IMG/VR virus record: IMGVR_UViG_3300032030_004230
Length of the DNA: 64,000 bases
Reading direction: 5' to 3' (one strand)
Source: a virus
Lineage: Duplodnaviria; Caudoviricetes
In this document: in pieces, positions 5,464-49,659 of the stretch
Numbering within the stretch: position 1 is the stretch's first letter
Layout: every line of letters starts with the position of its first letter
Notes under the pieces: generated by a model
Databases searched by the model: none
What the model was told of the DNA's origin: nothing
Seen by the model: only the letters and a program-made list of their open reading frames with translations
Program-made: the position numbers and the translations under genes

Positions 5464-5619
5464 CTATTTCCCTCTTTTCTTTACTTGCTTGTTGTACTCT
5501 GTAGCAGCTTTGCCTAGGTTTATTCTAGCTCGTTGCGAGCCAGTCTTCAAAAATTCTATAGCTGCTTCTAGAAGCTTTAATGACAGTGGGTACAAAGCTT
5601 TATAGTCTTCTTCTTTCAT
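5464..5619 (-). CDS. Small hypothetical protein (51 aa, MKEEDYKALYPLSLKLL...), not in ORF track
   Basis: Translated by hand; fills the gap exactly and is preceded by GTTAAT-N8-ATG. Confidence 0.6.
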   Translation of the reverse strand: MKEEDYKALYPLSLKLLEAAIEFLKTGSQRARINLGKAATEYNKQVKKRGK

Positions 5620-5628
5620 AAAAGAAAA

Positions 5629-5832
5629 TTAACTTTTTGAAAGAGCGTCTTTTATCAGAAGAGAGATTCCAATAAGAACATTAAGAATCATCAAGATTCC
5701 GATAATGAACGTAACAAAATAGCCAGCTCCAAAAGCTAATCTTTCATAAGAAGCTTTAGCAAGCAAAAGCGCCACGAACAATGCAAATGAGTAAAATATT
5801 GCATGTATAGCAAAGCTTTTCTCATCAATCAA
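5629..5832 (-). CDS. Small membrane protein (2 TM)
   Basis: Two hydrophobic segments. Confidence 0.6.
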   Translation of the reverse strand: MIDEKSFAIHAIFYSFALFVALLLAKASYERLAFGAGYFVTFIIGILMILNVLIGISLLIKDALSKS

Positions 5833-5844
5833 ATAATACTCTCA

Positions 5845-6033
5845 CTACAAATCTAATCTTTTTACTGCTTCTTGCAGATTACAATACGGACATAATCTTA
5901 CTTTGTAAAGTGTTTTAGTCTTAGGACTGTTGTACTGCTCTCTTCGTATGTATCTATAGTAGTAAGACCTTCCACAGCAGTCACACATCTCATATTCTTC
6001 AGGTTTAGGTTCTTCTATTTTATCGTTTGACAT
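5845..6033 (-). CDS. Small zinc-ribbon protein
   Basis: CDCC...CPYC. Confidence 0.6.
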   Translation of the reverse strand: MSNDKIEEPKPEEYEMCDCCGRSYYYRYIRREQYNSPKTKTLYKVRLCPYCNLQEAVKRLDL

Positions 6034-6104
6034 TTTAGTTCTTCTTAGAAAAAAGCTTTTACTAAATAATTAACATACTTATATCTCATAATGGAGAAAT
6101 TTAC

Positions 6105-7757
6105 ATGGAGAATACAGAATACAATGTGCCAGAAGTAGAAGAGACTGACTCACAGTACTCTGAAACTGGCAAATATGGTGATGGTGTTCCTACTATTGAC
6201 AGTTCTGATATTGAAGAAAAAGTAGAATCAGATTCTGGCTCTTGGCAGGACGCAATTGAAGAAGCTACTGAAGACAGAATTCAGTACGACTTCTCTGCAG
6301 ACGATGATGCAGATGACACTACAGAAGAAAGCACTGCTGAAGCTGGTGATACAGTTGTAGAGCCTTCCCTTGAAGATGTTGTAAAAAGTCGTCTTGAAGA
6401 CGCAAGGGCAGACATTGTCGAAGATGTAGACAATATTTTTGCAAACATCATAATGAAGTTCGAAGACGCTGGCGGCTCTTTTGAGAATGAAACAGGCGAT
6501 GAGCTTGTAAAAAATGCAGAAGAAGAGTTTGGTGTTGATGATGTTGATTACGGTGACACTGACAACAGCTTTGACAAGGTCGTCGTTCTTAAAGAAGCAG
6601 TGATTGCAAAGAGATTAAGAGAAGCTGAAGGTCTCTTCACTGTTGAAGAGGCTCTTAAGAAAGCTGATAAGAAAGACTGGGATAGAGCTTTGGCACACTA
6701 CTCTGAGGCTCAAGTTGAAAGCATGTTCAATAAGATCACTGATCCACGAAAAAGGATTGGTAGAGCAATTGCTTTCTATACTGCATCAATGCTCACTAAA
6801 GGCTACACAGCGCATGGGGAATACAAATATCTTCGTGGCTTCATTGATCAGTCATCTTTGGATGAGTTTTTCCATGAAGGGGACGGTTACTATGACTCTT
6901 GTGAGAAATGCATAGTCGACCTTTGGCCAAAAGTCAAAGATCTCATTAATGCTTCACCAGAGGCAGTTGGCAAGTTTGAAGAAGCTTATGAAGAAGCTTT
7001 GAAGAAGATCGACCAGAAAGCTGCTGAGAAAAAAGCTGCTGAAATGAAAAAAGCTGCTGAAAAGGCTAAGAAAGAGAAAGAAACTGAATGGCTCAAAAAG
7101 CAGTATCAAGCTGCTGGAGCTGCAGTTTTTCAAGTTTCTAGTGAATGGAATTCCTTTGGCGGTTATATTGGCCAGTATGGAAAAGTTGCATACACACCTT
7201 CTGGAAGAAAGATGTCTGATGAAGAAATCTATAGAAAAATCCAGAAATACAATGATGAAAACTACTATGAGCCAAAATACTTTGCTGTAGCAGGCTTCCA
7301 TGGTGGATATGATAGAGACTTTGGTGTAGAGTACGAAGGCAAAACAATCTATACTCTTGACATTGCAAAAGCTTATGAGGACTACATAAATTACTCAACA
7401 GATGGCTATCTGAGCGTCTACAAAATCTCTAAGAGAATCAAAATGGAAGAATCTCTTGAAGCTGAGAACGAAGATCCTACTTTGACAGATTATCAGAAAG
7501 ACGTAGTCAAAGAGATGGTCAAATGTGATTTTGAATGCGGCAAAACTGAAAACGATTACGATGAGCTTGTAGGACTTCTCAAAGAAGATGAAGACTTTGC
7601 TGGTGTAGAATCAGCTGCTGCCGACTACTATATGGAACTTTTGGACTACGGCCCTGCAGGCTTCTATGAAGAGTTCAAAGATGAGCTTGACTTCGATCCC
7701 GACTTTATTGCTGAGTACGGTGATGAAGATGACGAAGAAAACTTCGAAGAAGACTAA
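6105..7757 (+). CDS. Acidic multi-domain protein, putative head-internal (cargo) protein
   Basis: 550 aa, very acidic ends, several LxE-type sites (LKEA, LREA, LEAE); GGAG SD. Confidence 0.55.
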   Translation: MENTEYNVPEVEETDSQYSETGKYGDGVPTIDSSDIEEKVESDSGSWQDAIEEATEDRIQYDFSADDDADDTTEESTAEAGDTVVEPSLEDVVKSRLEDARADIVEDVDNIFANIIMKFEDAGGSFENETGDELVKNAEEEFGVDDVDYGDTDNSFDKVVVLKEAVIAKRLREAEGLFTVEEALKKADKKDWDRALAHYSEAQVESMFNKITDPRKRIGRAIAFYTASMLTKGYTAHGEYKYLRGFIDQSSLDEFFHEGDGYYDSCEKCIVDLWPKVKDLINASPEAVGKFEEAYEEALKKIDQKAAEKKAAEMKKAAEKAKKEKETEWLKKQYQAAGAAVFQVSSEWNSFGGYIGQYGKVAYTPSGRKMSDEEIYRKIQKYNDENYYEPKYFAVAGFHGGYDRDFGVEYEGKTIYTLDIAKAYEDYINYSTDGYLSVYKISKRIKMEESLEAENEDPTLTDYQKDVVKEMVKCDFECGKTENDYDELVGLLKEDEDFAGVESAAADYYMELLDYGPAGFYEEFKDELDFDPDFIAEYGDEDDEENFEED

Positions 7758-7809
7758 TTTCTAAGTAGATGAGGAGACACTAAGTCTCCTCTCAATTTTT
7801 GGAGATACT

Positions 7810-7992
7810 ATGGACAAACTTGATTACTACACAGAAGAACTTTGTGGAATCTACGAGCTCACAAGAACTGATGAGACACTTACAGACGAAGATGTAAGAA
7901 AAGTTTATGAAGCAAAAGACTACGCAGAAGAAAATAACTGTGAAGAACTTTTGAACTTGGCAAATATTCTTATTGAGAGGATTGAAAAATGA
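7810..7992 (+). CDS. Hypothetical protein
   Basis: 60 aa, GGAG SD. Confidence 0.7.
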   Translation: MDKLDYYTEELCGIYELTRTDETLTDEDVRKVYEAKDYAEENNCEELLNLANILIERIEK

Positions 7993-8285
7993 AAGAATGT
8001 ACATGCAATTGCAAAGACGGAAAATGCACATGTGGTGCTGCAGAAGAGAACTTGAATGTTATCAGAGAATGCGTTCTTGAGGCTTTGAAAGAAGTTGGTG
8101 TAAGAGGCTTTCTTAATGTTTTTCTTAAAGCACCATCTGGAAGACTTTTCCCAGCTCAAGTAGACGGTCGGCAGATCAATACAGCACCTGATGAAAAATC
8201 AAAGAATGAAGCTCTTGCAAAAATAAATGCAGCTTATCACAAGAACTACACTCTAGACCAATTGGTTTTCCAACCAGCAGCCTAA
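7989..8285 (+). CDS. Hypothetical protein with Cys-rich N-terminus
   Basis: CTCNCKDGKCTC; ATGA overlap. Confidence 0.7.
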   Translation: MKECTCNCKDGKCTCGAAEENLNVIRECVLEALKEVGVRGFLNVFLKAPSGRLFPAQVDGRQINTAPDEKSKNEALAKINAAYHKNYTLDQLVFQPAA

Positions 8286-8288
8286 ATT

Positions 8289-8322
8289 AAAAAGCCACTC
8301 ATTTAGAGTGGCTTATTTTTTT
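8289..8322. terminator. Bidirectional intrinsic terminator
   Basis: A5-GCCACTC-ATTTA-GAGTGGC-T-rich tail between convergent genes. Confidence 0.8.
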
Positions 8323-8868
8323 TTAGAAATAATTGTTGTCTTCATTTCGCTCCAACTCATAATTAAGAGCAAAATGACTTCCTTCAGTAGATGCATACTT
8401 CCATCCAAGAAGATTTTCGATTGAACTGATCTCTCTAGAATCAATAAGACGAGAGCAAATGTTATTTTCTTTATTTTTGTAGTAAACTAAGATTGTGGGA
8501 GAAGACTCTTCACTCAATTTCGGCAGTTTATAATTTGCAGAATCTACAAAATGAACTTTCTCTTCATCAAAGAAATCACCGTACTTTTTAGAAACTTTTT
8601 CTGCATAAAGACGAATTTGTCGAAGAATCTTCTCATTCATCTCTTCAAGAGATTTTTTCTCTATTTCACCATTGAATAAGAATACTTGAAATCTTCGTTT
8701 TTTAAGAGAAACAAATTCATAAGCTTCATCACCAATAGACCACCAGAAGTGTGGGATTGGCGTGCAAAGAGGGCTGAATCTTGCGGGTATTGCATGAATC
8801 TTTACATTAAGCGGATTTCTAATCCATGCTTTTAATGCTTCAATAAGACAATTGCTGTGCATAGTCAT
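8323..8868 (-). CDS. Hypothetical protein
   Basis: 181 aa, AGGAGG SD, TATTATATTA motif upstream (8888-8897). Confidence 0.75.
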   Translation of the reverse strand: MTMHSNCLIEALKAWIRNPLNVKIHAIPARFSPLCTPIPHFWWSIGDEAYEFVSLKKRRFQVFLFNGEIEKKSLEEMNEKILRQIRLYAEKVSKKYGDFFDEEKVHFVDSANYKLPKLSEESSPTILVYYKNKENNICSRLIDSREISSIENLLGWKYASTEGSHFALNYELERNEDNNYF

Positions 8869-8901
8869 TATGTCCTCCTTGCTATAATAATATAATAAAA
8901 G

Positions 8902-9957
8902 TTACATAGTGATTTTAGTTATTATACGAGCTATTTTGTAATGATAGTCTGGCCTATAGCTACAAGGGATAATCACCATACCATAATTTGCACTTAAACT
9001 GTCTGCTTTTTGTTTGATGGCAGTGTTTCGTTTATATATTGAGCTGACACCGTCTCTTTTGTACGCATAATCAATTGTACAATCACCCACAGAATCAGCA
9101 TTTGACGGTAAGACGAACTCTAAAATTATAACATTTCTTAGATCTTTTTTTGTGCATTTATAAGGCATATTGAACAATACTTTATTGGGACCAGTTCCAA
9201 CTGGTATGGCCTCATAAGGACATTGGTTTATAGAATGAAGAGTGTCACCAAAGCTCAATTTGTTTGTTGAAGTTGGAGAACCAAAACAGAAAGTATTTCT
9301 GATGCTATCATATACCAGGTCTGATACAGTACTTAGATCTAATGTCACATTCTGATAGAAAACAACATTCTGCAAGCCAGAATAATAATTCTTAAGTTTG
9401 TTAAGATCATCTTTGTAGTCAAATAGCCTGTTGTAAAAGAGTCTTCTATCAGGTCCCTTATAATCTATGGTGTTGCTCCCCCCTTGTTTTCCAGCTACGA
9501 ATACAGGTGTAGATACTATAAGCAAATGTCCGCTAAAGGCAGTTACTGATGTTGCTGTAGCTGTGCTTGAGTTCTCAAGCTTTTTAATGTCTTTATCAAC
9601 TGTGGGGAACAGGAGTGTTATAGTTACATTAGGCAATAATATAAACGGATGAATCGTTGATCCGCCTGCATTTATAATTTTTTGTATGTGGATAGCTTTT
9701 GGGTATTTAGTAGAATTTTTGATTGTGAGCTCTTTTACATAGTAGTTTGGATCTGTAGGACGAGCACTATTGAAAGAACACATAAACGCATAAAAAGATT
9801 TTGGCTCATTATATGGATCTGTGATTTTTACTGTAACTTGCCCATCAAAGGTGGCGTTATCAACAGTTTTACAGCTCTTTCTTATGCATCTGTAGTCAAA
9901 AGCATCATAGCTGCTTATTATTCCATGAGAAGCAGTGTTGCCAAATTCAATTTGCAT
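8902..9957 (-). CDS. Putative virion/tail-associated protein
   Basis: 351 aa, beta-rich composition, ACTAAT-N5-ATG late-type motif. Confidence 0.5.
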   Translation of the reverse strand: MQIEFGNTASHGIISSYDAFDYRCIRKSCKTVDNATFDGQVTVKITDPYNEPKSFYAFMCSFNSARPTDPNYYVKELTIKNSTKYPKAIHIQKIINAGGSTIHPFILLPNVTITLLFPTVDKDIKKLENSSTATATSVTAFSGHLLIVSTPVFVAGKQGGSNTIDYKGPDRRLFYNRLFDYKDDLNKLKNYYSGLQNVVFYQNVTLDLSTVSDLVYDSIRNTFCFGSPTSTNKLSFGDTLHSINQCPYEAIPVGTGPNKVLFNMPYKCTKKDLRNVIILEFVLPSNADSVGDCTIDYAYKRDGVSSIYKRNTAIKQKADSLSANYGMVIIPCSYRPDYHYKIARIITKITM

Positions 9958-10011
9958 AAAAAATTAGTTTCATCTGCAAAAATCTAAGAAAACTAATTTT
10001 TTATGCAAATT
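9949..10011. repeat. 22-bp perfect inverted repeat spanning both divergent start codons
   Basis: AAACTAATTTTTTATGCAAATT at 9990-10011 and its reverse complement at 9949-9970; 19-bp spacer. Confidence 0.9.
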
Positions 10012-12719: not shown

Positions 12720-12745
12720 CACAATTTAAGAGGAGAATTTTAGTA

Positions 12746-13615: not shown

Positions 13616-13636
13616 TCTTTAGCTAAAAGTACAAAG

Positions 13637-13661
13637 AAAAAGCCCCTTTTTGAGGGGCTTT
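13637..13661. terminator. Bidirectional intrinsic terminator
   Basis: AAAAAGCCCCT-loop-AGGGGCTTT between convergent genes. Confidence 0.75.
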
Positions 13662-15178: not shown

Positions 15179-16600
15179 TTAAGATGCTTTTTCATCTGTC
15201 TCTTCATCATCAAGCTCATACTGCTGCATTCGCATACATTCAGGCTGGAACATATAAGCTCCGATCATGCCGACACGTCCTTGATTTTGCTTCATCATTC
15301 CAACTTCTACAATGTCTAGCATATCTTCCCAAAGTTCTTTTGGCAAATAAGTTTCTGCATAGTACTTCTTTCTGAAAAGATAAACTGACCAACGAGCTCG
15401 TTCAAGATATGAGTTTGAATCTTTAATGTCTGTTCTTTTTGGTCTGAACTTGTCAATGTCTTTTACATCATCAATACGACCATCTTCTGCTTTACGACCA
15501 ATCTGCAATGTACCGACCCAATGGAAACCAAGCTCTTTTGCCATTGCATTCATAATGTTTACAGCAACAGTAATTCCTTGTGCAAAGTTTGCACCTTTTG
15601 AATCTGTAATCATAAACTCACGAACCATTGAAAGCAAGTCGATGAAAAGAATAAAATACTTCTGTCCAATCTTTTTCTGGAACTTCAAAGCATCTTGACG
15701 AATCTGCTGCAATGAAACAGATGCACATTCTGAAATTTCAAGCTTTGAATTATCGATAAGCTCTTTGAATTCAGACTCAATTTTGTCTCTCAAAGAAAGC
15801 CATGCATTTGGATCTTCAGGATTTACAAATTGTGATACAGGAATTCCTGTGCGCAAAGCCATAAGACGATCTGTAGTATCAACATTTCCCATCTCAAGAG
15901 TGTAGTACAAACAAGGCACACCAGCATTTGCAAGTCCATTGATAAGATTGAGACAATAAGCTGATTTTCCCATACCTGTTGCAGCTGTAATAAGCCCGCC
16001 ATTTCCAGGATTTGGTCCGTATGTGACTGATTTGTCTAGAACTGAATCGTAAAACTTATAGCGCTTACCATTCTTACGAAGATTAAAGTCCTCAAGATAC
16101 TGTTCTTTGAGTTCTTCCATTGTAGAAGTTCTCTTTATTGAGACGCCTTCAAGCAAAAGTGACTCAGCTTCAAGCATCTTTTTACGAATAAGTTCTTCTA
16201 CAGCTTCTTCTCTACGAGGGTGCTTATTTATAAGTCCTTCAACTTCAGACATGATTTTAAGAGCTTTTTCAGAGTTCTTCATATAAAGAAGAGACTCAAC
16301 CATGTCTTTTATGTCTACATCTTTGTCTTGATTAAGAGCTGCAATCTCTGAAATTGTGTTCAAAGATACATTTACATCAATTCCGCTTGCATACTGGAAA
16401 ACTGCGAGCTCTGTGTTAGGCGTGTTCTGCTCTTTAAGATACTGAAGAGCTTTATAAATAGACTTGCTTGAACCATGAATAAAAAGCTCTTCGCTAATTC
16501 CAGGCTCATCAAGTTTCTCTGGATTTAGATAAAGCGCATTCAACAGTCTGTATTCTGAGATAAGCGCTGATGTTGATTCTGTAACTTGCTTTTCTGCCAT
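15179..16600 (-). CDS. Replicative DnaB-like (SF4) helicase
   Basis: Walker A AATGMGKS, YTLEM, FIDLL, TLQIGR, DIKDS, KQNQG. Confidence 0.88.
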   Translation of the reverse strand: MAEKQVTESTSALISEYRLLNALYLNPEKLDEPGISEELFIHGSSKSIYKALQYLKEQNTPNTELAVFQYASGIDVNVSLNTISEIAALNQDKDVDIKDMVESLLYMKNSEKALKIMSEVEGLINKHPRREEAVEELIRKKMLEAESLLLEGVSIKRTSTMEELKEQYLEDFNLRKNGKRYKFYDSVLDKSVTYGPNPGNGGLITAATGMGKSAYCLNLINGLANAGVPCLYYTLEMGNVDTTDRLMALRTGIPVSQFVNPEDPNAWLSLRDKIESEFKELIDNSKLEISECASVSLQQIRQDALKFQKKIGQKYFILFIDLLSMVREFMITDSKGANFAQGITVAVNIMNAMAKELGFHWVGTLQIGRKAEDGRIDDVKDIDKFRPKRTDIKDSNSYLERARWSVYLFRKKYYAETYLPKELWEDMLDIVEVGMMKQNQGRVGMIGAYMFQPECMRMQQYELDDEETDEKAS

Positions 16601-16629
16601 AGTGAAAAAATATTAACTCCGTAATGATA

Positions 16630-17343
16630 TTAAAACAATACAATCGGTTCAGATTGTCTATTCTGCAAATAGTTGTCTTCAAATGTGAGAAGCGTCTTAT
16701 GATTTTCTGTCTCTCTTTGCACAAAGTCTTGTATTGAATGAGAGAATCCCTGAGTTTCAATGTCTTCTGGCTTTACATTTGAGATAAAAAGAATGCCTTT
16801 ATTCTCAGACTGAATTCTTGTACGAATAAAAGAATCAATAAAACTATTCTGCCAACCAGTAGAGAACAACTTAACTTTAGATTTGTCAAATGCTTCATCA
16901 ATTACAAGTAAATCCGACTTCATCAAAAGGTCTACGTCACTTCTTGCTTCAGTGTCTCGTTCTGCTCTTTCAAGAAGTTTTATGAGGCTGTCCATTAAGA
17001 TATAACGAACTGAATACTTTTCTCTAATAAGAGACTTACCGACCCAAGATGCCATTGTAGATTTCTGACAACCATTTGGCCCATACATGTAAACTACGAG
17101 TTTCTTAACTTCTGGATTTTCTTTGAATTGCTTGACATAGTTGATAAGCCGATTCTTTGATTCTACCGACTTTGTACCCACATACTTGCGAGGATTAAAG
17201 TCATAGTTTCGCATGTCAAAGCCATAATGTTTATACAATGCTTTTGCTTGCTTTTCAAGTCTTTCTTCTTTGTGTTCAGGTTTTTCTTTGAGAACATTGT
17301 CTTCTAAATAAAAGCCATCAGGCACTTTGTAATAGTCAATCAT
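16630..17343 (-). CDS. DnaC/IstB-like AAA+ helicase loader
   Basis: Walker A-like GPNGCQKS, Walker B LLVIDE, ISN sensor; directly upstream of the helicase. Confidence 0.75.
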   Translation of the reverse strand: MIDYYKVPDGFYLEDNVLKEKPEHKEERLEKQAKALYKHYGFDMRNYDFNPRKYVGTKSVESKNRLINYVKQFKENPEVKKLVVYMYGPNGCQKSTMASWVGKSLIREKYSVRYILMDSLIKLLERAERDTEARSDVDLLMKSDLLVIDEAFDKSKVKLFSTGWQNSFIDSFIRTRIQSENKGILFISNVKPEDIETQGFSHSIQDFVQRETENHKTLLTFEDNYLQNRQSEPIVLF

Positions 17344-17425
17344 AATTTTAAATTAACACTTTTTGTTCTTAAAGTGATTTGAGATGACCCATACAAATTG
17401 TCTTGCTACAAGAATAGAGCTTCCA

Positions 17426-20221: not shown

Positions 20222-20354
20222 AATGTGTTTCCTCTTCTTGACTACTTTGAGTCATTTGAATAAAATTTATTTTATGTTACCCAACGGGTAAAAATTTCTA
20301 CTTCTTGATGTTATAGAAATTTAGTAGTATATTAACACATAGTCTAGAAACTTT

Positions 20355-20640: not shown

Positions 20641-20675
20641 TAATATTTTTTTTTTAGATTTGTTAATATCTTTAT

Positions 20676-21239
20676 ATGGCAGAGTACTACATTACTGGAA
20701 ATGGGCAGAGAATATATAAAGATCCTGCAAAGCAAAGAGCATACTTGAAATGGCTTGAGAATAAAGAACTTGAAAAATCTAGAAAAATGAGACCTCAGCA
20801 GCAAAGGCCTGCACCTGCAAGACAAAAGCCTGATGATGGATACGACATAATTGATGGAGAAAGAATCTATCATGATCCTGCAAAGCAAGCTCGTTGGATG
20901 AAGTTTCTCAAAGAAAAAGAGGCTCAGAAAGCTGCAAATGAAAGAGATGAATTTGAGAATGCATATTCTGAAGACAATGCAGAAGAAGAATACACAATCA
21001 ATCAATTCGGTGACAGACAGTATTACGACCCTGAAAAACAAAGAGCTTATGAGGAACTAATTAAACGAAAAGCAAGAGAAGAAATTGAGCACCCGAAAGA
21101 TAACACGATCTTTTCATCTCAATATCGAGACTTGGATTTTCAGTATCAATGGGAAGAAAAAGAATTCGACTCATCAAATTTTGAGATGGAAGAGGGCGAT
21201 TATGACCTTGGCGACAAGGAACAGCCTTCAGAGGACTGA
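20676..21239 (+). CDS. Protein with three G-x-R-x-Y-x-D-P-x-K-Q repeats and an acidic tail
   Basis: GQRIYKDPAKQRAY, GERIYHDPAKQARW, GDRQYYDPEKQRAY. Confidence 0.8.
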   Translation: MAEYYITGNGQRIYKDPAKQRAYLKWLENKELEKSRKMRPQQQRPAPARQKPDDGYDIIDGERIYHDPAKQARWMKFLKEKEAQKAANERDEFENAYSEDNAEEEYTINQFGDRQYYDPEKQRAYEELIKRKAREEIEHPKDNTIFSSQYRDLDFQYQWEEKEFDSSNFEMEEGDYDLGDKEQPSED

Positions 21240-22213: not shown

Positions 22214-22291
22214 AAGTTGTCTATAGTTAATTTTTAATTACTTATTTGCAATTTAATGTTTCAAAGAAAACATGTATAAGAGGTTTTTAAG

Positions 22292-23623
22292 TTGAACATC
22301 ACTGAATTTCTAGACACGCAGTATAATGAAGCTGCTTTGTACATGCTTTATCGTAATACTGCTTCCTATGTAGACGGACTAAAGAATGCTGCTCGTAAAG
22401 TTGTTTACACAATCAAAAAAAGAAACATTTCTCATCCAATGAAAGTTTCAGCACTTGGCTCAGCTGTAGTAGAAGCAGCAGAGTATTTGCATGGAGATGC
22501 TTCAATTCAGACTACAATTGTAACAGCAGCAAAAAGTGCAGGTGGCTACAACAATCTTCCAGTTCTTGAAGGCATTGGGGCTTTTGGAACTCGTTTCAAC
22601 AAAGAGAATGCTGCAGCTCGTTACATCTTTGCAAAGCCTGCAGAGTATTTTGACCTGCTTTTCAGAAAAGAAGATGACCCAAATCTTGCATTGCAGGAAT
22701 TCGAGGGAAAGCCAATTGAGCCTATGTACTATGTTCCTACTTTGCCTTTGATTTTGGTAAATGGCTCAGAAGGTATTGGTGTTGGTTTCTCTTCTTTGGT
22801 TTTTGCAAGGCCTGTTGCAAATGTCATAAAGGCGACAAGAGCTTTTATTGAGGGAAAAAAATTAAAATCTGAGTGGTTCTACCCTGGCTGGCATGACTTT
22901 AGAGGCACAGTTGCTCCAGATGAAGGCACAAGGTGGATTGTCAAGGGCGTATATGAACGCAATGGCAAGAAGGTTAAGATTTCTGAAGTGCCTATTTCTT
23001 GGAACTTGAAGCCTTTTACTGACAATCTTGATAAGCTCAAAGATGCTGGAAAAATCAGAAGCTATCTAGACTTCTCAGAAGACGATCACTTTAAGTTTGA
23101 AGTCACACTTTCAGATGAAGAAGCTCTCAAGACATCTGAAGAGATCGAAAAAGATCTTGGCTTAGTAGAGCCAATGTCTGAGATTCTCTCTTTGTTCGAT
23201 GAGACAAATCAAATCCGTGAGTACAATGACATTAAAGAGATATTTAAAGACTATTGTGACATCAAAATCAAGTCACTTCAGTGGAGAATCAAATCTGAGA
23301 TTGCTCGGCTCTCAAAAGAAGAAAGTGACCTTAAAGAAACATTGAAATTCGTCAAAGAGAATATAAAAGGCACTATCGTTCTTAAAAATAAGAAGAAAGC
23401 TGAAGCAGAAAAAGAGCTTAAAGAAAAAGGCTATACAATCATTGACAAGCTGATTTCTATGCCACTTTATTCTTTGACCATAGATAAGGTAAAAGAGCTT
23501 GAAGACAAAGTGAAAGCAAAGACAGCAGAACTTAAAGCAATGAAAACAGCTACTCCTCAGTCTTTGTGGTCTAAAGACATTGACGAGCTCGAAGTTAATT
23601 TGAAAAAGACAGGTTGGTTGTAA
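22292..23623 (+). CDS. DNA topoisomerase II, cleavage subunit (T4 gp52/GyrA/ParC-like)
   Basis: DGLK..RK, YLHGDAS, AAARY catalytic Tyr, LVNGSEGIGVG. Confidence 0.95.
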   Translation: MNITEFLDTQYNEAALYMLYRNTASYVDGLKNAARKVVYTIKKRNISHPMKVSALGSAVVEAAEYLHGDASIQTTIVTAAKSAGGYNNLPVLEGIGAFGTRFNKENAAARYIFAKPAEYFDLLFRKEDDPNLALQEFEGKPIEPMYYVPTLPLILVNGSEGIGVGFSSLVFARPVANVIKATRAFIEGKKLKSEWFYPGWHDFRGTVAPDEGTRWIVKGVYERNGKKVKISEVPISWNLKPFTDNLDKLKDAGKIRSYLDFSEDDHFKFEVTLSDEEALKTSEEIEKDLGLVEPMSEILSLFDETNQIREYNDIKEIFKDYCDIKIKSLQWRIKSEIARLSKEESDLKETLKFVKENIKGTIVLKNKKKAEAEKELKEKGYTIIDKLISMPLYSLTIDKVKELEDKVKAKTAELKAMKTATPQSLWSKDIDELEVNLKKTGWL

Positions 23624-25978: not shown

Positions 25979-26886
25979 TGGGAAGTTATTTGAATTTTTC
26001 AATTGAAAGAAAGCTCAGTTCAGGTGAGTGGACGCATTTCTATGATTTGCCTTATGATGATGACTTGTCAATTGTAAATGACAGAGTCCTTAGAGATTTG
26101 TTCTATGATACAGAATTCTATGATGGCATACCATGCATAAATGAGCTTTGCGATAAGACAAAAGCAAACATGTGCTCTAAAATTGAACGACATGGGATTT
26201 TTTGTCATGTAGATGAAGAGTCTGACTTATTTCCATATAAGTTCAAGTGTTTTGAAAACTACTATTGGGCATATACGTCTAATGCAAAAGAGAAAATTCT
26301 TAAAAAGCTTGATGAGCTTGATAAAGATTTAGACACAAAGTTCAATGATGTTGGACTCTTGATTAAAGACGCATATCTTAAAGAGCTCTTCGATAAAAAT
26401 TGTGATATTGTCACTTTTGACGACAGAAGTTATCTTCATCTCTTTATGAGTCCTCATAGTGCGAAGAATGCACTTTTACATAATCCAGACTACAGGGAAG
26501 ACTATTTCTGGGGCGTAGCATCTCTTAAGTATCTAGATAGCAAAAAGAAAGAAGTAAAGCAATATAAGCTCACAAACAATACAAGAGTGAGCTCATATAA
26601 TTCACTTCTCGCAATGAAGTCAGATTTAGAGAAGTCTATAAAAAGAGCTGAGCTCTCTATGTCTGATGAAGCTCGTCTTTCTCAGATTTTGAAAGATGCT
26701 TGTGAAGAAGTTGATGAAGGTGATTGGAACACTTCTCTTGGAAAAGTAGTAAAGAGCTTGATAAAGAACGATAATTTCTCATATTCTGAAGAGTACATCA
26801 ATGAATTGAAATTGCAGCTTCAAGAACTTGAGAAGTTAATTTTCATTACAGGAATAAATGGCAGAGTAATTTGGAACATCTCTTAA
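25978..26886 (+). CDS. Hypothetical protein
   Basis: Start at the TAATG overlap (MGSYLNF). Confidence 0.75.
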   Translation: MGSYLNFSIERKLSSGEWTHFYDLPYDDDLSIVNDRVLRDLFYDTEFYDGIPCINELCDKTKANMCSKIERHGIFCHVDEESDLFPYKFKCFENYYWAYTSNAKEKILKKLDELDKDLDTKFNDVGLLIKDAYLKELFDKNCDIVTFDDRSYLHLFMSPHSAKNALLHNPDYREDYFWGVASLKYLDSKKKEVKQYKLTNNTRVSSYNSLLAMKSDLEKSIKRAELSMSDEARLSQILKDACEEVDEGDWNTSLGKVVKSLIKNDNFSYSEEYINELKLQLQELEKLIFITGINGRVIWNIS

Positions 26887-35072: not shown

Positions 35073-35168
35073 AAAGAATTAGTTGAGTTAATCTTTTTGT
35101 AGAGCAGGATATAAAAATCCTTGTCTCTATAACATATAACATTTTTATAAATAGGAGAACACATTAGC

Positions 35169-36477: not shown

Positions 36478-36497
36478 AACCGCCCATGAGGGCGGTT
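36478..36497 (+). terminator. Hairpin after pncB
   Basis: AACCGCCC-ATGA-GGGCGGTT. Confidence 0.6.
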
Positions 36498-36521
36498 AAT
36501 CTATTTTTAAGGTGATGAAAA

Positions 36522-40095: not shown

Positions 40096-40127
40096 AGAGA
40101 GTTAATTTCTAATTTGGAGATTTATTT

Positions 40128-42627: not shown

Positions 42628-43578
42628 ATGAGTAAGTGGCTATATCACAGTGGACTAAAAACAACTGCAACATTCATTGGCAATAGAAAACGAAAAACTG
42701 AAGCACTTCGTTTGTTTGAATGCTCAAGAGAAGACAATATTGAGAAAATTGAAAAGTTTGTCAAGGGGCATGAGCTTTCTTCAAAAACTTGGAGACTGGA
42801 CTATGACAGACCAAGTGCGTATGACGCTTATGACAGTGACGCTTATGCTATTATGTTCTCAGGCGGCTTTGACAGTCTTTCATTAGCTTTGCGTCACTTA
42901 GAAAAGAAAGAACGTGTCTATCTGTTGTCAATTGGTTTTCATGAAGATGAGCGTTGCTCTGCTTGGCTTACTGCACAAATACTAAAATCAGTCTATGGTG
43001 AAGACAATGTAAAGTTCATCAAATTGTTTGATGAGATTTTAATTGATGGTGAAGGAACTTTTGGATTGACGCAACAGCCTATTTGTGCTTTTTATGCTTC
43101 ACACATGCCAGAAGTTGTTTTTGAAGACATTAAAGCAGTTGAATGTGCGTATGTAATGAACGATGATGCGATCTCATATTTGAGTGAACTAAAAGCAATT
43201 TACAGTAATGCCATGAAATGCCACAGTGTCTCTTGCAGTCGTAAAGACTTCCCGCCTATGAGATTCCCTCTTTCAAAAGTTCAGCATCATGAGAATATTG
43301 ACTACGTTCGCAGAATTGAAGAAAAATACGATGTGATTTTCCCAACATTATCAGCTGAACACATTCGATCAAGAATGTATGAAGCAAAAAATGACTTCGT
43401 TTACATTATTGAAGCTGGAGAAAATCAAGACAAGCCAAACAAAGAATGTGATGTCCATGCTTATATTTTCATTGAGCATCTTCGACAGATCAATAGTCTA
43501 AAAGAAGTATTCTCACATTCTCTTACGAAGAGAATCAAAGAGAGACTTGAGAAAGTAGCAGAAACGCTGGAAAGTTAA
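42628..43578 (+). CDS. QueC-like PP-loop ATPase
   Basis: AIMFSGGFDSLSL PP-loop; no C-terminal Zn-binding Cys cluster. Confidence 0.65.
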   Translation: MSKWLYHSGLKTTATFIGNRKRKTEALRLFECSREDNIEKIEKFVKGHELSSKTWRLDYDRPSAYDAYDSDAYAIMFSGGFDSLSLALRHLEKKERVYLLSIGFHEDERCSAWLTAQILKSVYGEDNVKFIKLFDEILIDGEGTFGLTQQPICAFYASHMPEVVFEDIKAVECAYVMNDDAISYLSELKAIYSNAMKCHSVSCSRKDFPPMRFPLSKVQHHENIDYVRRIEEKYDVIFPTLSAEHIRSRMYEAKNDFVYIIEAGENQDKPNKECDVHAYIFIEHLRQINSLKEVFSHSLTKRIKERLEKVAETLES

Positions 43579-43587
43579 TCTTTTTAC

Positions 43588-44760
43588 ATGAAGAATAGAA
43601 CTTGGGTATATGCAGATAATAGAAGAGTAGAAGTCTTCTTACACATGGGCAACAAGATTTTCAATAGAATGCATTCTTATGAGAGAAGCATCCTTGGCAG
43701 AGAAAACGAAAAAATTGTAGTTCAGATAGTTCGTTATTCTGAAGGCTCAAAAGACTTGTCTATTTGCTGCTGGTACTGGAAGAAAAGAGACATTAAGAAC
43801 ATCACTTATGGGTCTCTTCTTTTTGAATGGAGAATGCCTTTTGTAAAAAATGGTGTTTACAGCTTATGTTGTGATCTTCCAAAAACTGAAAATTGGCATG
43901 CTATTCGAAGCTGTTTTTCAACTGTTAAAGAAAAGAAACCGACAAAAGACAATGCATTCTACTATCAAAATCATGTTGGACAGGAATGCTTCACGAATGA
44001 TGAAATAAAAGACAATGAAGAAGCCGTCAAGCTTACGATCGACAGATACATGACAAAAGACGAAGCAAAAGCAACTTGGAGACACATCAAAAAGAATAAT
44101 TGGGTCTCAAAGTTTTATTGGGACCCTTGGATGCATGAGTATGACTGCTACTGCAACTTTTGCAAAGCTATCTCTGTAACAGAGCCTAGAAGAAGCTGGA
44201 GATCATGGGTGAGCAATCCAGACATTGGCTATGTTTGGCTAGACGAAATACATTGCAAGAGTGACTATGTCTACAAAGGAAAAGCTTATGTTCCTTGTCC
44301 AGCTGAATTGTATGATCGTCTTTGTTTTTTTAATAAAGAGCAATATGAAGAAGAGATAAAAGATAAGACTGGGCGATTTAAGACTTTTGATGAGTTGTGG
44401 AATGAAGAGCTCACAGCTAAAGAAATTAAAAGCAATGGAAATGTCTGTGGTGGTGCATGGAGAAATCTTCTTAGCAAAAATATTATTGCAAAAGATGATG
44501 TAGACAATGCAGATGATGCAAATCTTGAGAAAGTTGTCACTCTAGGCTGGCATAGAACAGAGATAGAGCATGCAGTTCGTTGTCCTGTTTGCGATGACTT
44601 GTATGAGATTATTTGTCGTAGCGACTACAACCCTGTGCCATTCTTTAAGAGACTTAAAGAGAGAATTGTATGGAAAGCAGAAAGACTTGAACTTGACGCT
44701 ATGCTGCACAATTTTCTCTATAATTTAAAGGAGACATTAAAATGCAAAAAGAGAAAATAG
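43588..44760 (+). CDS. Hypothetical Trp/Cys-rich protein
   Basis: 390 aa, GTTAAT-N8-ATG, CNFC...CPVC. Confidence 0.75.
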   Translation: MKNRTWVYADNRRVEVFLHMGNKIFNRMHSYERSILGRENEKIVVQIVRYSEGSKDLSICCWYWKKRDIKNITYGSLLFEWRMPFVKNGVYSLCCDLPKTENWHAIRSCFSTVKEKKPTKDNAFYYQNHVGQECFTNDEIKDNEEAVKLTIDRYMTKDEAKATWRHIKKNNWVSKFYWDPWMHEYDCYCNFCKAISVTEPRRSWRSWVSNPDIGYVWLDEIHCKSDYVYKGKAYVPCPAELYDRLCFFNKEQYEEEIKDKTGRFKTFDELWNEELTAKEIKSNGNVCGGAWRNLLSKNIIAKDDVDNADDANLEKVVTLGWHRTEIEHAVRCPVCDDLYEIICRSDYNPVPFFKRLKERIVWKAERLELDAMLHNFLYNLKETLKCKKRK

Positions 44761-47676: not shown

Positions 47677-47832
47677 CTAAAGATGCATTTTCTTTAGTGT
47701 TCTAAAATTGCCTGGTTTCTCTTTGTCTTCTACGATGCGAGTAGCATTATTGCTCTTTGCTTCGTCAAGTTGCTCAACAGTCACAGGCTTTCCGTCAAGA
47801 GTAAGCTCTTTTGTTTCTTTTGTGTTTTCCAT
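47677..47832 (-). CDS. Small hypothetical protein (51 aa, MENTKETKELTLDGKPV...), not in ORF track
   Basis: AGGAG SD, ACTAAT motif upstream (47854-47859). Confidence 0.65.
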   Translation of the reverse strand: MENTKETKELTLDGKPVTVEQLDEAKSNNATRIVEDKEKPGNFRTLKKMHL

Positions 47833-47971
47833 AAAGGATTCTCCTTGCTAATAATTAGTCTTTCCTGTGAATTCGATCAACTTAGTTAATAATAGAATAT
47901 TAACTTACTATTCTGAAACAGCAATAGGACTCATGTAGGAATGAGCCCTGTATTTTTGAAATTTTAAAGAC

Positions 47972-48349
47972 TTATATAGACTTTGCGTCTTCTTTTTCAC
48001 AAGCAATTTCAGCATTCATATCAAAGTACATTTTCTCAAGAGTTTCATAGATGTCTTCAATATTGTAAGCTTCTCTTCTGTCTTCGTTGTCTCGCAAGAA
48101 CTCATAAAGACTAAGAAGTCGCTTTTTGTTAAAGCATACTGCATAATTAAGAACAGCAAAATCATAACCAGCTTCCCAAATCTTCTGATTAGACAATGCT
48201 GAGAAAGTTTTGCCTGTCTCATCAGTCCATGCAGCAGTGCCATCTTTCTTGAAAATACATGCACTTGGACCAGCAGACATGCCTTCTCTAAAATTGGCTG
48301 TCTCTAGCCATTTCTCGTACTCAGGATTTTTCTTTTCATTAAGAGCCAT
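47972..48349 (-). CDS. Hypothetical protein
   Basis: 125 aa, GGAG SD. Confidence 0.7.
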   Translation of the reverse strand: MALNEKKNPEYEKWLETANFREGMSAGPSACIFKKDGTAAWTDETGKTFSALSNQKIWEAGYDFAVLNYAVCFNKKRLLSLYEFLRDNEDRREAYNIEDIYETLEKMYFDMNAEIACEKEDAKSI

Positions 48350-48370
48350 ACATTAGTCTCCAACATATAA

Positions 48371-48757
48371 TTATTTTTTCACCCATTCCAGAAAGTTCAT
48401 TTCTGAGAAAGTTCCCTTATCTTTAGCTTTTTCAATTCTTGCATTTGTAATGTCTTCATTGCTGATAGAGAATTGTCTCTTCACAATGTCAAGAACTTCA
48501 AACAAATCTGCAAACTCTTCAATAAGAAGCTCATGTTCAAGTGTATGATCACCGGGCTCAACTTCTGTTACATGATCGTACCATGCATAAGCACTTGCAA
48601 GCTCTTTTGCTTCTTCTTCAATTTTGTTTGCTATTGCATCAATGTACTCTTTAGTAAACTTCTTTATTTGATGGACTTTGAGAGCATTCCCGTCTTTCAT
48701 TATCAATTGTGGTACTTTATCTCTCACCAGTTTTTCGTATTTTATCTTTCTTCTCAT
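48371..48757 (-). CDS. MazG/PRA-PH-like NTP pyrophosphohydrolase
   Basis: KLVRDKVP, EEEAKE, EEFADLFEV, R..K...KG.F. Confidence 0.85.
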   Translation of the reverse strand: MRRKIKYEKLVRDKVPQLIMKDGNALKVHQIKKFTKEYIDAIANKIEEEAKELASAYAWYDHVTEVEPGDHTLEHELLIEEFADLFEVLDIVKRQFSISNEDITNARIEKAKDKGTFSEMNFLEWVKK

Positions 48758-48876
48758 AAAAGCTCTTCCATACTACAAATAAAACAAATAAAGCAAAAAC
48801 AACAAGCTCCATTACGCCAACTACTACAAACATTTTCAAGCACCCAATAAGAAGTACTTTTAAAATTGTCATAAAG

Positions 48877-49179
48877 TCACTCACTTGCGTAATCTGCAAC
48901 TACTGGACAATAGAATAGCTTGAAGCCTTCATCTTTGTAGTACTCATATCTTAATGAATGTGCACCTTCTAACCACAAGTAGACTTCATTTTCTGCAATG
49001 TCATACATGTGAAGCATCTCTTGCAAAGCATCTTCTTTGATCTGATCTAAAGCTTCAAGGTCATCTAATTCCTTAAGATAACCTAAAGATTTTTCAATGT
49101 CTACTACTTTCGCCCAATCAAAAAACGCCATAATAGATGCTATTGATTTTGCAACTTTAAGTGGCATAGATTCTTTCAT
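48877..49179 (-). CDS. Hypothetical protein
   Basis: 100 aa. Confidence 0.65.
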   Translation of the reverse strand: MKESMPLKVAKSIASIMAFFDWAKVVDIEKSLGYLKELDDLEALDQIKEDALQEMLHMYDIAENEVYLWLEGAHSLRYEYYKDEGFKLFYCPVVADYASE

Positions 49180-49182
49180 ACG

Positions 49183-49644
49183 TTACCATCTCCACATATC
49201 ATCAGTCATATCAGGCGCAGACAAACACAACTTATATCGATAATATTTCTTGCCTACTTCAGCAATTGGCATATACTTTAATCTGCCATTTATTCTTAAC
49301 TCTGAATAAAAAACTCTATCAGGAACAGGCTTTTTTCCATTGAAAGCTTCGTTAAAAGTCTTTGAGTCTACAGCTATCGACTTCATCAGATTCTCAACTG
49401 TATTTACAAGATACGCTTCAAATGTTCTTGCGTCTTCTGACTCTTGAATTACTTCACCGATACTGTTGACAACAATCCATTTCTGATTGGTTGTAGCATT
49501 CAACTCATGTACAAAATACCACATTGCTTTGTGATCAGGATCGTCCCATCTAGATGCATCATCTTTGCTGTCAGTAAGTGAATAGTGACCACAAAGATTT
49601 ACAAAATATGAATTATGCTCAAGTCTTCTAATATAGTACCACAT
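49183..49644 (-). CDS. Hypothetical protein
   Basis: GTTAAT-N8-ATG places the start at 49644. Confidence 0.7.
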   Translation of the reverse strand: MWYYIRRLEHNSYFVNLCGHYSLTDSKDDASRWDDPDHKAMWYFVHELNATTNQKWIVVNSIGEVIQESEDARTFEAYLVNTVENLMKSIAVDSKTFNEAFNGKKPVPDRVFYSELRINGRLKYMPIAEVGKKYYRYKLCLSAPDMTDDMWRW

Positions 49645-49659
49645 AATCAAAGATTAACC

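Follow-up and report, generated by a model that had tools for sequence, protein, structure and literature searches.

A candidate -10-type promoter element at a fixed distance from start codons in a clade of uncultured giant phages

What kind of signal stands at a fixed distance before start codons that lack a Shine-Dalgarno (SD) sequence? In the window (the whole 64,000-nt stretch of DNA analyzed here, from an uncultured giant rumen phage), the initial annotation had placed GTTAAT exactly 8 nt before an SD-less ATG at five genes and read it as a promoter-like motif. All five coordinates hold: GTTAAT-N8-ATG, where N8 is the 8 nt between hexamer and ATG, occurs five times versus 0.81 expected, and none of 100 dinucleotide shuffles of the window reached five matches. 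We consider it likely, with a probability of about 70%, that the hexamer is part of an eight-base box, GTTAATNT, which would be the single -10-type core of a phage-specific promoter class, with transcripts starting at or next to the ATG. A clade of giant phages from gut and rumen, all uncultured, would share this class.

The spacing is specific. Every other spacing between 0 and 24 has at most one GTTAAT site, apart from N21 with 3, and the hexamer is under-represented in the window overall (24 sites versus 39.5 expected). When all hexamer/spacing pairs before the starts of the 94 ORFs used as the gene set were compared, GTTAAT at N8 tied for first with SD hexamers, and the positional enrichment persisted in a family-wise test (P = 0.0005 with upstream regions shuffled, P = 0.0215 with upstream regions rotated). 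The ATGs of all five sites are ORF starts (51, 237, 187, 390, and 153 aa), and GGAG, GAGG, and AGGA are absent from positions -20 to -4 of all five genes. One of these tetramers is present at those positions in 67 of the 94 window genes, and because so many phage genes have an SD, the host very probably uses SD as well.

We aligned sites from the window and two related phage records, G001 and G002, to define the motif. The set comprised 37 N8 sites, minus 4 with ORFs under 40 aa; the 33 with ORFs of at least 40 aa include 5 from the window and 9 and 19 from the two relatives. The full box proved longer than GTTAAT: position 8 is T in 33/33 sites, so that a complete box at N8 is equivalent to GTTAATNT-N6-ATG. 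The base preceding the ATG is T in 29/33, no column upstream of the box rises above 19/33, and one-mismatch variants of GTTAATNT are rare, almost none. Numbered so that the ATG begins at +1, the box reads G(-14) T T(-12) A(-11) A T N T(-7), and T(-12), A(-11), and T(-7) are present in all 33 sites. As a sequence pattern, this register matches the layout of sigma70-type -10 elements. The box has mismatches to TATAAT at -10 and -9, and the host primary sigma may therefore not read it. Among long ORFs at N8, 29 open with ATG and one with GTG. Eighteen of the 24 GTTAAT sites in the window have T at position 8, and the predicted +1 base of these 18 is A in 13, G in 2, C in 2, and T in 1.

The initial annotation had named genome-wide disappearance of the 8-nt peak as a refutation; checked in the two whole related records, the peak persists beyond the window. 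G001 has 11 GTTAAT sites at N8 and 0 to 6 at other spacings, and G002 has 21 at N8, 14 at N9, 8 at N10, and 0 to 12 at other spacings. Counts of GTTAATNT-N6-ATG in G001 to G004 were 10, 19, 3, and 1, versus 0, 3, 2, and 0 for the reversed motif, which served as a control; in G003 and G004, which are more distant, the pattern is weak.

Three of the five window sites are on the minus strand. GTTAATTT-N6-ATG at 5617..5633 starts the 51-aa ORF 5464-5619, and the upstream ORF 5629-5832 terminates at the TAA within this box. The same arrangement at 17341..17357 starts the DnaC-like helicase loader (16630-17343), and GTTAATCT-N6-ATG at 49642..49658 starts the 153-aa ORF 49183-49644, the upstream gene stopping 1 nt before the box. 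On the plus strand, GTTAATAT-N6-ATG at 20662..20678 starts the 187-aa ORF 20676-21239, and GTTAATCT-N6-ATG at 43574..43590 starts the 390-aa ORF 43588-44760, with the box TAA serving as the stop codon of ORF 42628-43578; the G001 orthologue of the 390-aa gene has GTTAATAT at N10. The 187-aa ORF is followed by an AstE/AspA-like gene.

Slightly wider spacings had been noted for dut and the helicase, and these were confirmed at 9 nt (690-695, ATG 680) and 11 nt (16612-16617, ATG 16600). At the DnaB-like helicase (GTTAATAT at N11; 16598..16617, minus strand), the predicted +1 is the A at 16603, giving a 3-nt leader; its orthologues in G001/L001 and L010 have the box at exact N8. The dut site (GTTAATAA at N9; 678..695, minus strand) is a doubtful member because GTTAATAA does not have T at position 8, which is otherwise invariant. 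In G001, dut has GTTAATAT and then an SD leader.

The box also occurs further upstream of genes, and the sites reported at 20331-20336(-), 22226(+), 35087(+), 36495(+, ATG 36522), and 40101(+, ATG 40128) were all recovered. GTTAATAT at 20329..20336 (minus strand) has a predicted +1 A at 20322, about 101 nt before an SD-led 490-aa gene (18749-20221); orthologues in L001 and L010 also have GTTAATAT upstream, and the distance is kept at roughly 70-110 nt in all three. The SSB label that the initial annotation gave this gene has no Pfam or PHROG support; its sole support, a weak structural lead to gp32-like clusters, makes a gp32-like SSB possible. On the plus strand, GTTAATTT at 22226..22233 follows a hairpin (22192-22213), and the leader predicted from the +1 A at 22240 runs 52 nt to an SD (AGAGG) and a TTG at 22292, where a topoisomerase II subunit starts. 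GTTAATTT at 23594..23601 (plus strand) lies within the last codons of this preceding topoisomerase subunit gene; from its predicted +1 G at 23608 it is 17 nt to the start codon (ATG) of the topoisomerase II large subunit. GTTAATTT at 26835..26842 (plus strand; predicted +1 C) lies toward the 3' end of 25978-26886 and 62 nt before an SD-led NAD synthase gene, and the intergenic GTTAATCT at 35087..35094 (plus strand) has a predicted +1 A at 35101, 68 nt before an SD-led NAPRTase gene. GTTAATCT at 36495..36502 (plus strand) lies directly 3' of the hairpin CCGCCC..GGGCGG; transcription is predicted to begin with the first A of AAGGTGA, giving a 13-nt leader that opens with the SD. A 13-nt leader (T-GGAG...) is likewise predicted for GTTAATTT at 40101..40108 (plus strand), which is preceded by a fourth copy of a 21-nt box unit. 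The intergenic GTTAATAT at 47897..47904 (minus strand) has a predicted +1 A at 47890, 58 nt before an SD-led 51-aa gene (47677-47832), and forms an inverted pair with a nonconforming GTTAATAA at 47885(+); the G001 orthologue of this gene also has GTTAATAT and then an SD.

Eleven of the 18 window GTTAATNT sites fall in intergenic DNA, which makes up 7.7% of the window (P = 1e-8). Three sites within genes, each on the gene's own strand, are of doubtful function: GTTAATGT at 52574..52581 (minus strand, in 52492-52989), possibly an internal promoter; GTTAATCT at 53518..53525 (minus strand, in 53432-54262), 91 nt before the next gene; and GTTAATCT at 58972..58979 (minus strand, in 58824-59213). The only antisense site of the 18, GTTAATGT at 61120..61127 (plus strand) against gene 60634-61455, is probably not functional.

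A fixed distance to ATG and a missing SD could also mark a signal that acts in RNA. GUUAAU might be a translation signal, either a non-SD enhancer or a termination-reinitiation element in polycistronic mRNAs with the AUG 8 nt downstream, although we think this improbable. The TAA within the box is the upstream gene's stop codon in 10/33 N8 sites, and in 8 further sites no more than 6 nt separate the end of that gene from the box, so an upstream co-directional gene ends in or beside the box at 18/33 sites. Many N8 sites are thus tight gene junctions, and translational coupling or reinitiation is therefore also conceivable. However, a box 50-110 nt before an SD-led gene, or at N8-N11 before an SD tetramer, cannot place a ribosome on the AUG. 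SD tetramers downstream of GTTAAT begin at N8 or later, with the exception of a few at N0-N2 and one at N7, and the box stands 8-11 nt before them, as in GTTAAT-N8-GGAGG in L010 and at 36495 and 40101 in the window. Terminator-like hairpins with a T tract within 55 nt upstream were found at 6/62 box sites in G001 and 7/110 in G002, far more commonly than at random positions (51/3000 and 21/3000) or SD-led starts (4/71 and 0/109), while only 1/18 window boxes has such a hairpin. Boxes also occur in divergent intergenic regions that have no upstream co-directional gene, e.g., 20336(-) and 20662(+), and the invariant positions fit the DNA-level -10 pattern T, A...T. To our knowledge, the 3' end of 16S rRNA has no complement to GUUAAU. 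Because the box also precedes SD tetramers and SD-led orthologues and follows intrinsic terminators, we favor a promoter over a translation signal; together with the strict -10-type geometry and the N8 peak in two relatives, these placements agree with the promoter-like character first proposed.

Less probable still is that the box is an operator overlapping gene starts, at which a DNA-binding protein of the phage represses or activates the replication regulon, and that the true promoters lie elsewhere. The very strict sequence and the tie to one functional gene set would suit an operator, as would the outcome of the search for a cognate reader, in which the records of four relatives, one of them complete, yielded neither a detectable RNA polymerase nor a detectable sigma factor. 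Against this, no second conserved promoter element accompanies the N8 sites in the 33-site alignment, a sigma70 -35/-10 consensus scan of 15000-34999 listed no match at the GTTAAT sites in that range, and the compact spacers of 14-20 nt between stop and next ATG are too short for another promoter. An asymmetric, strand-specific box in 1-nt register with ATG or SD starts better suits an element that determines the start site. Least probable of all is an endoribonuclease processing site, in which cleavage 8 nt downstream of GUUAAU would expose a 5'-terminal AUG and yield leaderless mRNA after transcription: it would account for the fixed AUG distance, the absent SD, and the many sites at operon-internal junctions, but upstream transcription would seldom reach a box directly behind a terminator or in a divergent intergenic region, the T(-12)/A(-11)/T(-7) and T(-1)/A(+1) preferences are features of RNA polymerase initiation, and no nuclease candidate is linked to the motif.

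If GTTAATNT is a promoter core, it would span -14 to -7, and the first transcribed base would be the 9th after GTTAAT, in most cases an A that follows a T. Where this A is that of the ATG, as at the five window genes and the 9 and 19 sites of the two relatives, the mRNA would be leaderless. Its missing SD would be explained, because the ribosome would bind the 5'-terminal AUG directly; with a message starting at or next to the ATG, such genes would need no ribosome-binding leader. Where the gene start lies further on, the leaders would be 1-3 nt long, begin with the SD, or carry an SD over 50-110 nt. We infer that a sigma-like factor on the host polymerase would read the box.

The genes behind the box suggest when such a class would act. 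In the window, they include the loader, helicase, topoisomerase II, NAD synthase, and NAPRTase genes, and the proposed link to replication is borne out in G002, where N8 sites stand before primase, DNA polymerase (two parts), and loader genes and the box also precedes NMNAT, a Dda-like helicase (at N9), and a methyltransferase. The class would thus drive genes of replication, recombination, and nucleotide or NAD metabolism, and because of this gene content it is probably a pre-late ("middle") class. As had been suggested, it is distinct from ACTAAT: ACTAA-type sites form a separate class, found in G002 before giant and structural ORFs. Alongside the box class are this ACTAA(T) class and an AT-rich TATTATATTATT motif class.

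RNA data were available as assembled metatranscriptome contigs, the ends of which do not reveal where transcripts start. One match to the window opens exactly at 20676, an ambiguous sign in an assembled contig. In a contig from one related strain, 45 unrelated letters replace the box directly before ATG 20676, which could be a strain variant or a chimera. In a contig whose strain is about 95% identical, positions 17365-17427, which lie immediately upstream of the loader box, are skipped.

Several known systems resemble this one in part. T4 late promoters carry TATAAATA at -13 to -6, which gp55 reads together with gp33 and the gp45 clamp (PMC1524935). Like the box, this is a short, highly conserved single element centered on -10 without a -35 element, and it is found in a large phage with T4-like genes for replication and recombination (UvsX, clamp loader, Dda, and RIIA). 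In contrast to T4, the box differs in sequence, would drive replication rather than late structural genes, and is predicted to give leaderless transcripts; no gp55 homologue was detected, phrog_234 and phrog_12791 matching 0/4 relatives' records. Middle and late transcripts of the Thermus phages P23-45 and phiYS40 are leaderless. Their promoters are described as an extended -10 class used by host RNA polymerase and favored by gp39 (PMC7403470). These promoters and the box are both -35-less phage classes that rely on a -10-region element, but the box does not conserve the T of an extended -10 "TG" (T at -15 in 9/33). AR9 is reported to have early promoters AAATATATATTAT-N6-G and late promoters AACA-N6-TA/G, read by phage multisubunit RNA polymerases, and its reported UTRs of 26-491 nt mean that these transcripts are not leaderless (PMC5312081). 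Unlike phiKZ/AR9, box transcripts are predicted to be leaderless; no RNA polymerase beta/beta' domains were found in the four relatives' records, and no DFDGD-type catalytic motif in the window, G001, or G002. The likeness to these jumbo phages lies in giant phages with several strict short promoter words at a fixed distance to +1, and the window TATTATATTATT motif resembles the AT-rich early word of AR9.

In mycobacteria, -10 motifs adjoining ORFs reportedly drive leaderless mRNAs, and GeneMarkS-2 is said to recognize leaderless classes in bacteria. In Deinococcus, a TANNNT -10 motif adjoining ORFs drives leaderless genes (PMC12340547). The box shares with these bacterial systems T/A/T at -12/-11/-7, a fixed 6-7 nt before the start codon, and carrier genes without an SD in a genome where other genes use GGAG. 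It differs in that GTTAATNT is almost invariant (7 of 8 bases) compared with the loose TANNNT. In addition, GTTAATNT is the element of a phage clade, is tied to one functional class of genes, and occurs alongside two other strict phage motifs.

GTTAAT occurs at 24 sites in the window on both strands, fewer than the 39.5 expected. Five of these sites stand exactly eight nucleotides before an ATG (N8, where the number gives the nucleotides between GTTAAT and the start codon), against 0.81 expected, and none of 100 shuffles reached five. Each of the five ATGs begins a gene (5619(-), 17343(-, the DnaC-like loader), 20676(+), 43588(+), and 49644(-)), and none is preceded by a core Shine-Dalgarno (SD) sequence, compared with 67 of 94 genes that have one. 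The gene set consisted of 95 ORFs picked greedily by length, with the first ATG taken as the start, less one that ran off the end of the window. The initial annotation had claimed these SD-less starts, together with GTTAAT at N9 before dut, at N11 before the helicase, and further upstream of other genes, and we confirmed each of these positions. When all pairs of hexamer and spacing were ranked over the 94 starts, GTTAAT at N8 tied with SD hexamers for the top rank; a count of at least 5 for some pair came up in 0.05% of sets with shuffled upstream regions and in 2.15% of sets with rotated ones. Other spacings of GTTAAT in the window had counts of 0 or 1, except for 3 at N21.

The window, with a G+C content of about 37%, is part of a large phage-like genome, and the full stretch was found in one sheep-gut DNA run. 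It encodes a dUTPase, a DNA methylase, a DnaB-like helicase, the DnaC-like loader, and two topoisomerase II subunits, along with NAD synthase, NAPRTase, an NMNAT-like protein, a CCA-adding enzyme, Thg1, and a PurA-like enzyme. No close DNA relative turned up among GenBank phages in a Megablast search with 15000-23000, tblastn with the 943-amino-acid (aa) ORF found no relative, and tblastn with the helicase gave matches only at 22 to 25% identity. Scanning viral and metagenome contigs with the helicase as a single protein gave no match; an alignment of 31 helicase homologues was needed to reach relatives, and it yielded 28 IMG/VR loci. Helicase homologues are present in contigs of up to 277 kb. 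Two related whole phage records served for comparison: G001 (188,745 bp, estimated 65% complete), with a helicase 50% identical to that of the window, and G002 (329,018 bp with terminal repeats, estimated 100% complete), with a helicase 38% identical. In G002, T4-like proteins of replication and recombination are encoded along with GroEL, several radical-SAM proteins, RNA ligases, and numerous homing endonucleases; its T4-like items in a PHROG scan are UvsX, clamp loader, RIIA, Dda, and baseplate wedge. Rfam had 0 matches over the whole window, and a PDB sequence search had 0 matches to the 4671-aa G002 ORF and the 943-aa window ORF.

The proposed spacing peak persisted beyond the window. Eight nucleotides was the top distance in the window and in both relatives, with 11 sites in G001 (other spacings, 0 to 6) and 21 in G002 (14 at N9, 8 at N10, and otherwise 0 to 12). 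The motif is present in G001, G002, and the locus L010 and is missing from the more distantly related records L011 to L023. Chance or a copied repeat as the origin of the pattern is ruled out because the sites have unrelated flanks and the pattern recurs in genomes in which the helicase is only 38 to 50% identical to that of the window.

To define the element, we used the 37 N8 sites minus 4 with an ORF below 40 aa, leaving 33 (5 from the window, 9 from G001, and 19 from G002). The second base after GTTAAT, which is absent from the search word, is T in 33 of 33 sites. T also occupies this position in 18 of the 24 GTTAAT sites of the window, and one-mismatch versions of GTTAAT in the same register are nearly absent; thus, the element is the eight-base box GTTAATNT, GTTAAT followed by any base and T. 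Of the 33 sites, 24 have A as the third base after GTTAAT and 29 have T immediately before the ATG, and the best column within 25 nt upstream of the box reaches at most 19 of 33. Numbered from the A of ATG (+1), the positions of the box are G(-14) T(-13) T(-12) A(-11) A(-10) T(-9) N(-8) T(-7); six more bases follow, the last of them T(-1).

The determinants of the sigma70-family -10 hexamer are T(-12), A(-11), and T(-7), and its canonical spacer to a purine start that follows a pyrimidine is six bases (5 to 8) long. The box has this geometry (TAATNT-N6-ATG) at all three positions, of which -12 and -11, like G(-14), are given by the search word GTTAAT. At the 18 GTTAATNT sites of the window, the predicted +1, the ninth base after GTTAAT, is a purine in 15 (A 13, G 2, C 2, T 1). 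Before long ORFs of the three genomes, the triplet at N8 is ATG 29 times and GTG once. G002 has 12 more long-ORF starts at N9, all with T at position 8 of the box, and the extra base is A in 8 of them. An extended -10 TG was not found, as only 9 of the 33 sites have T at -15, against 18 with A, G(-14) being part of the word. A scan of 15000-34999 for the sigma70 -35/-10 consensus listed no match at the GTTAAT sites there.

Based on sequence comparison, we read GTTAATNT as a putative promoter from which transcription would start at the start codon of N8 to N11 sites or no more than 3 nt from it, with a probability of roughly 0.7. The initial annotation had called the motif promoter-like, and the comparative evidence (spacing in relatives, placement, and conservation) supports this. 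Four observations favor a DNA-level promoter over a translation signal. The box is not tied to an ATG: in the relatives' loci L010 and L005 it is followed after 8 to 9 nt by GGAGG and then by the start codon, and SD tetramers 3' of GTTAAT begin at N8 or beyond, save a few at N0 to N2 and one at N7. Sites 36495 and 40101 have predicted 13-nt leaders that start with an SD, and sites 22226, 35087, 47904, and 20336 have predicted 52- to 101-nt leaders to SD-led genes. The box is kept where little else is conserved, namely, at a 490-aa gene (18749-20221), the helicase, the loader, and the orthologue of the gene at 43588, which has N10 spacing in G001. Its spacing from the helicase is N8 in G001 and L010 and N11 in the window. 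For the loader, it is N8 in the window and G002 and N11 in the locus L009; the loader is SD-led in L010 and coupled to the upstream gene in G001, where the GTTAAT-N8-ATG at 44364 is the start not of the loader but of a 274-aa gene just 5' of it.

The genomic placement of the box also fits a promoter. In the window, 11 of 18 GTTAATNT sites are intergenic, and intergenic sequence makes up 7.7% of the DNA (P = 1e-8); the others are six same-strand sites within genes, three of them at gene 3' ends, and one antisense site. We counted terminators, defined as a hairpin plus T tract at most 55 nt upstream, for GTTAATNT sites, random positions, and SD-led starts. They precede 6/62, 51/3000, and 4/71, respectively, in G001; 7/110, 21/3000, and 0/109 in G002; and 1/18, 61/3000, and 1/35 in the window. 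Translational coupling or re-initiation at tight gene junctions is conceivable, since the upstream gene uses the TAA within the box as its stop codon in 10 of 33 sites and 8 more upstream genes end at most 6 nt away. However, the box also precedes SD leaders and leaders of 52 to 101 nt and, in G001 and G002, follows terminator hairpins.

RNA data were available as assembled contigs, which carry no start information. Eight RNA runs contain part of the window, the best of them 45% of sampled words, and four runs were compared over 5000-24999. This region is represented in RNA libraries, with the highest depth over 18700-20300, the location of the gp32-like gene. The contig ends that carry adapter letters (17203 and 20298) did not coincide with predicted starts. 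RNA-library contigs from related strains break on both sides of the 14 nt (20662-20675) that run from GTTAAT up to the ATG: one agrees with the window as far as 20661 but not beyond, and another has 45 unrelated letters followed by a match from exactly 20676. A third contig, also from a related strain, is without the 63 nt at 17365-17427, a stretch ending 7 nt 5' of the box at 17357, which fits there being no required upstream element at that box. The breaks at 20661/20662, 20675/20676, and 17365-17427 could reflect indels between strains at promoter junctions or, alternatively, chimeric joins at RNA ends.

The 490-aa protein encoded at 18749-20221(-) belongs to no known family, with weak structural leads to gp32-like single-stranded-DNA-binding clusters. 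Its SD-led start has GTTAATAT upstream in the window and in the loci L001 and L010, at differing distances, with a leader of about 70 to 110 nt after GTTAATAT in the three genomes (in the window, up to 20322). This conservation was read from the raw sequences; MAFFT alignment of the three upstream regions left the window box out of register owing to unequal leader lengths. In T4, gene 32 regulates its own translation through its leader, and the leader of the 490-aa gene is therefore worth a look.

Next to this gene, the divergent intergenic region between GTTAAT 20336(-) and 20662(+) is filled by three tandem units, each headed by an exact 21-nt box, GAATTCGTCAACTATTAATGG. The window has four copies of GAATTCGTCAACTATTAATGG on the plus strand (20355-20375, 20463-20483, 20586-20606, and 40014-40034), against 0 expected, and each heads a unit of about 90 to 120 nt with a G-rich run and a ATTAATTATTAAT tract. 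The fourth unit ends at the GTTAAT site 40101. These units could be replication-origin iterons or a regulator-binding array. Folding of the four units gave no common structure, and only the copy at 40009-40100 beat shuffles. At 47885-47904, in the spacer between two minus-strand genes, an inverted pair, GTTAATAATAGAATATTAAC, combines a conforming site (-) with a non-conforming site (+) and adjoins a GAATTCGATCAAC box resembling the 21-nt repeat.

A link to replication genes had been proposed, and it holds: in the window the box is found at or upstream of the genes for the loader, the helicase, both topoisomerase subunits, and the gp32-like candidate. It also lies upstream of NAD synthase, NAPRTase, and several genes of no known function. 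In G002, N8 sites precede DNA primase, both DNA polymerase parts, the loader, NMNAT, and a thymidylate-kinase-like gene, and N9 sites precede a Dda-like helicase and a methyltransferase.

An unbiased scan, SD words aside, placed ACTAAT at N5 and GTTAAT at N8 in the lead among fixed-distance words in the window; both are among the leading words in G001, and those of G002 include GTTAAT at N8 and AACTAA at N5. The GTTAAT class is distinct from ACTAAT, as had been suggested, with ACTAA-type sites instead heading giant and structural ORFs in G002. ACTAAT-N5-ATG forms a second SD-less class in the window, at 711-724(+), 9992-10005(+), 9955-9968(-), and 35070-35083(-), with two back-to-back copies in the 45-nt divergent spacer 9958-10002, and the G002 word ACTAATTATTATG of this class has 19 to 20 copies. 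ACTAA-class sites precede ORFs of 943, 423, 351, and 180 aa in the window. The class is probably late or structural, since the ORFs that it heads in G002 measure 4671, 1577, and 878 aa, the 878-aa one being a baseplate-wedge homologue.

The AT-rich word TATTATATTATT has 13 window sites with at most one mismatch, against 0.71 expected, including 8886-8897, 14599-14610, 18642-18653, 25574-25585, 30241-30252, 31663-31674, 32738-32749, 39235-39246, 56005-56016, 58030-58041, and 62302-62313. It lies just 3' of the strongest terminators and 15 to 35 nt 5' of SD-led genes, and at 58026 it directly adjoins an ATG. Among repeated 12-mers, its variants come first in G001 and directly after ACTAAT-class words in G002. 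TATTATATTATT seems to represent a third promoter class, probably an early one, and is similar to the AT-rich early promoters found in AR9/phiKZ-type phages. From these motifs, a three-class program may reasonably be inferred, in which AT-rich words would drive early genes, GTTAATNT replication genes, and ACTAA-type words structural genes.

We searched for a protein that could read the box. The RNA polymerase and sigma profiles PF00562, PF00623, PF04542, and PF04545 matched 0 of 4 relatives' records, as did PF00940 (single-subunit RNA polymerase), for which the positive control had no match either. The PHROG families phrog_234 and phrog_12791, found with T4 gp55, matched 0 of the 4 records at E <= 0.1. 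A PHROG scan of 296 of the 305 G002 ORFs of at least 90 aa gave no RNA polymerase and no sigma factor at E <= 1e-8. The beta'-type DFDGD motif (D[FY..]DGD) was absent from large ORFs of the window, G001, and G002, save for one DMDGD in a 905-aa G002 ORF. Very divergent enzymes or factors could escape such profile, motif, and PDB searches. Because nothing recognizable was found in the relatives' records and divergent factors can escape, we infer that the box would be read by the host RNA polymerase with an unrecognized sigma-like or appropriating factor. An unrecognized phage polymerase is a possible alternative reader.

A bolder reading, which we consider doubtful, is that a giant gut phage clade, in which even a complete 329-kb genome shows no recognizable RNA polymerase or sigma factor, uses three strict promoter words, two of them (GTTAATNT and the ACTAA type) fused to start codons, giving at least 30 leaderless mRNAs per genome in an otherwise SD-reliant host. 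If true, three such words and at least 30 leaderless genes would imply an undescribed promoter-recognition factor or polymerase and might mean that the phage adds temporal control by switching between SD-led and leaderless translation.

For this uncultured giant phage clade, the box provides an annotation rule, marking transcription-unit starts and true SD-less start codons. It defines a replication and nucleotide-metabolism regulon apart from the two other motif classes, and it points to a factor reading a 14-bit -10-type word. If mapping of transcription start sites confirms the predicted starts, one phage gene class would provide a clear example of systematic leaderless expression. The other genes of the phage, and presumably of the host, use SD sequences, and this contrast, if confirmed, would make phage control of leaderless translation testable.

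A full-text literature search for GTTAAT with phage and promoter showed no such promoter among the matches listed. Membership in the AR9/phiKZ class is ruled out, as no phage RNA polymerase was found in the relatives' records and AR9 leaders, in a passage of PMC5312081, are 26 to 491 nt long. T4 late promoters, as a passage of PMC1524935 describes them, have TATAAATA at -13 to -6 and work with gp55, gp33, and gp45. Like them, GTTAATNT is a lone conserved element, about 8 bp long (-14 to -7), located at the -10 region with no -35. However, the word differs, the genes are those of replication and nucleotide metabolism, and no gp55-family match was found in the four relatives' records, which together rule out membership in the T4 late class. 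Middle and late transcripts of Thermus phage P23-45 are leaderless. GTTAATNT resembles that phage's middle and late promoters, which lack a -35 according to a passage of PMC7403470. In Deinococcus, TANNNT next to ORFs was shown experimentally to be the -10 region of leaderless genes, as given in part of PMC12340547, and as a promoter GTTAATNT would work like these -10 boxes next to ORFs. The principle of a -10 box adjoining an ORF is already known, as are single-element phage promoters, and the surprise to a specialist is therefore moderate; what is new is the word GTTAATNT, its phage clade, and its gene class.
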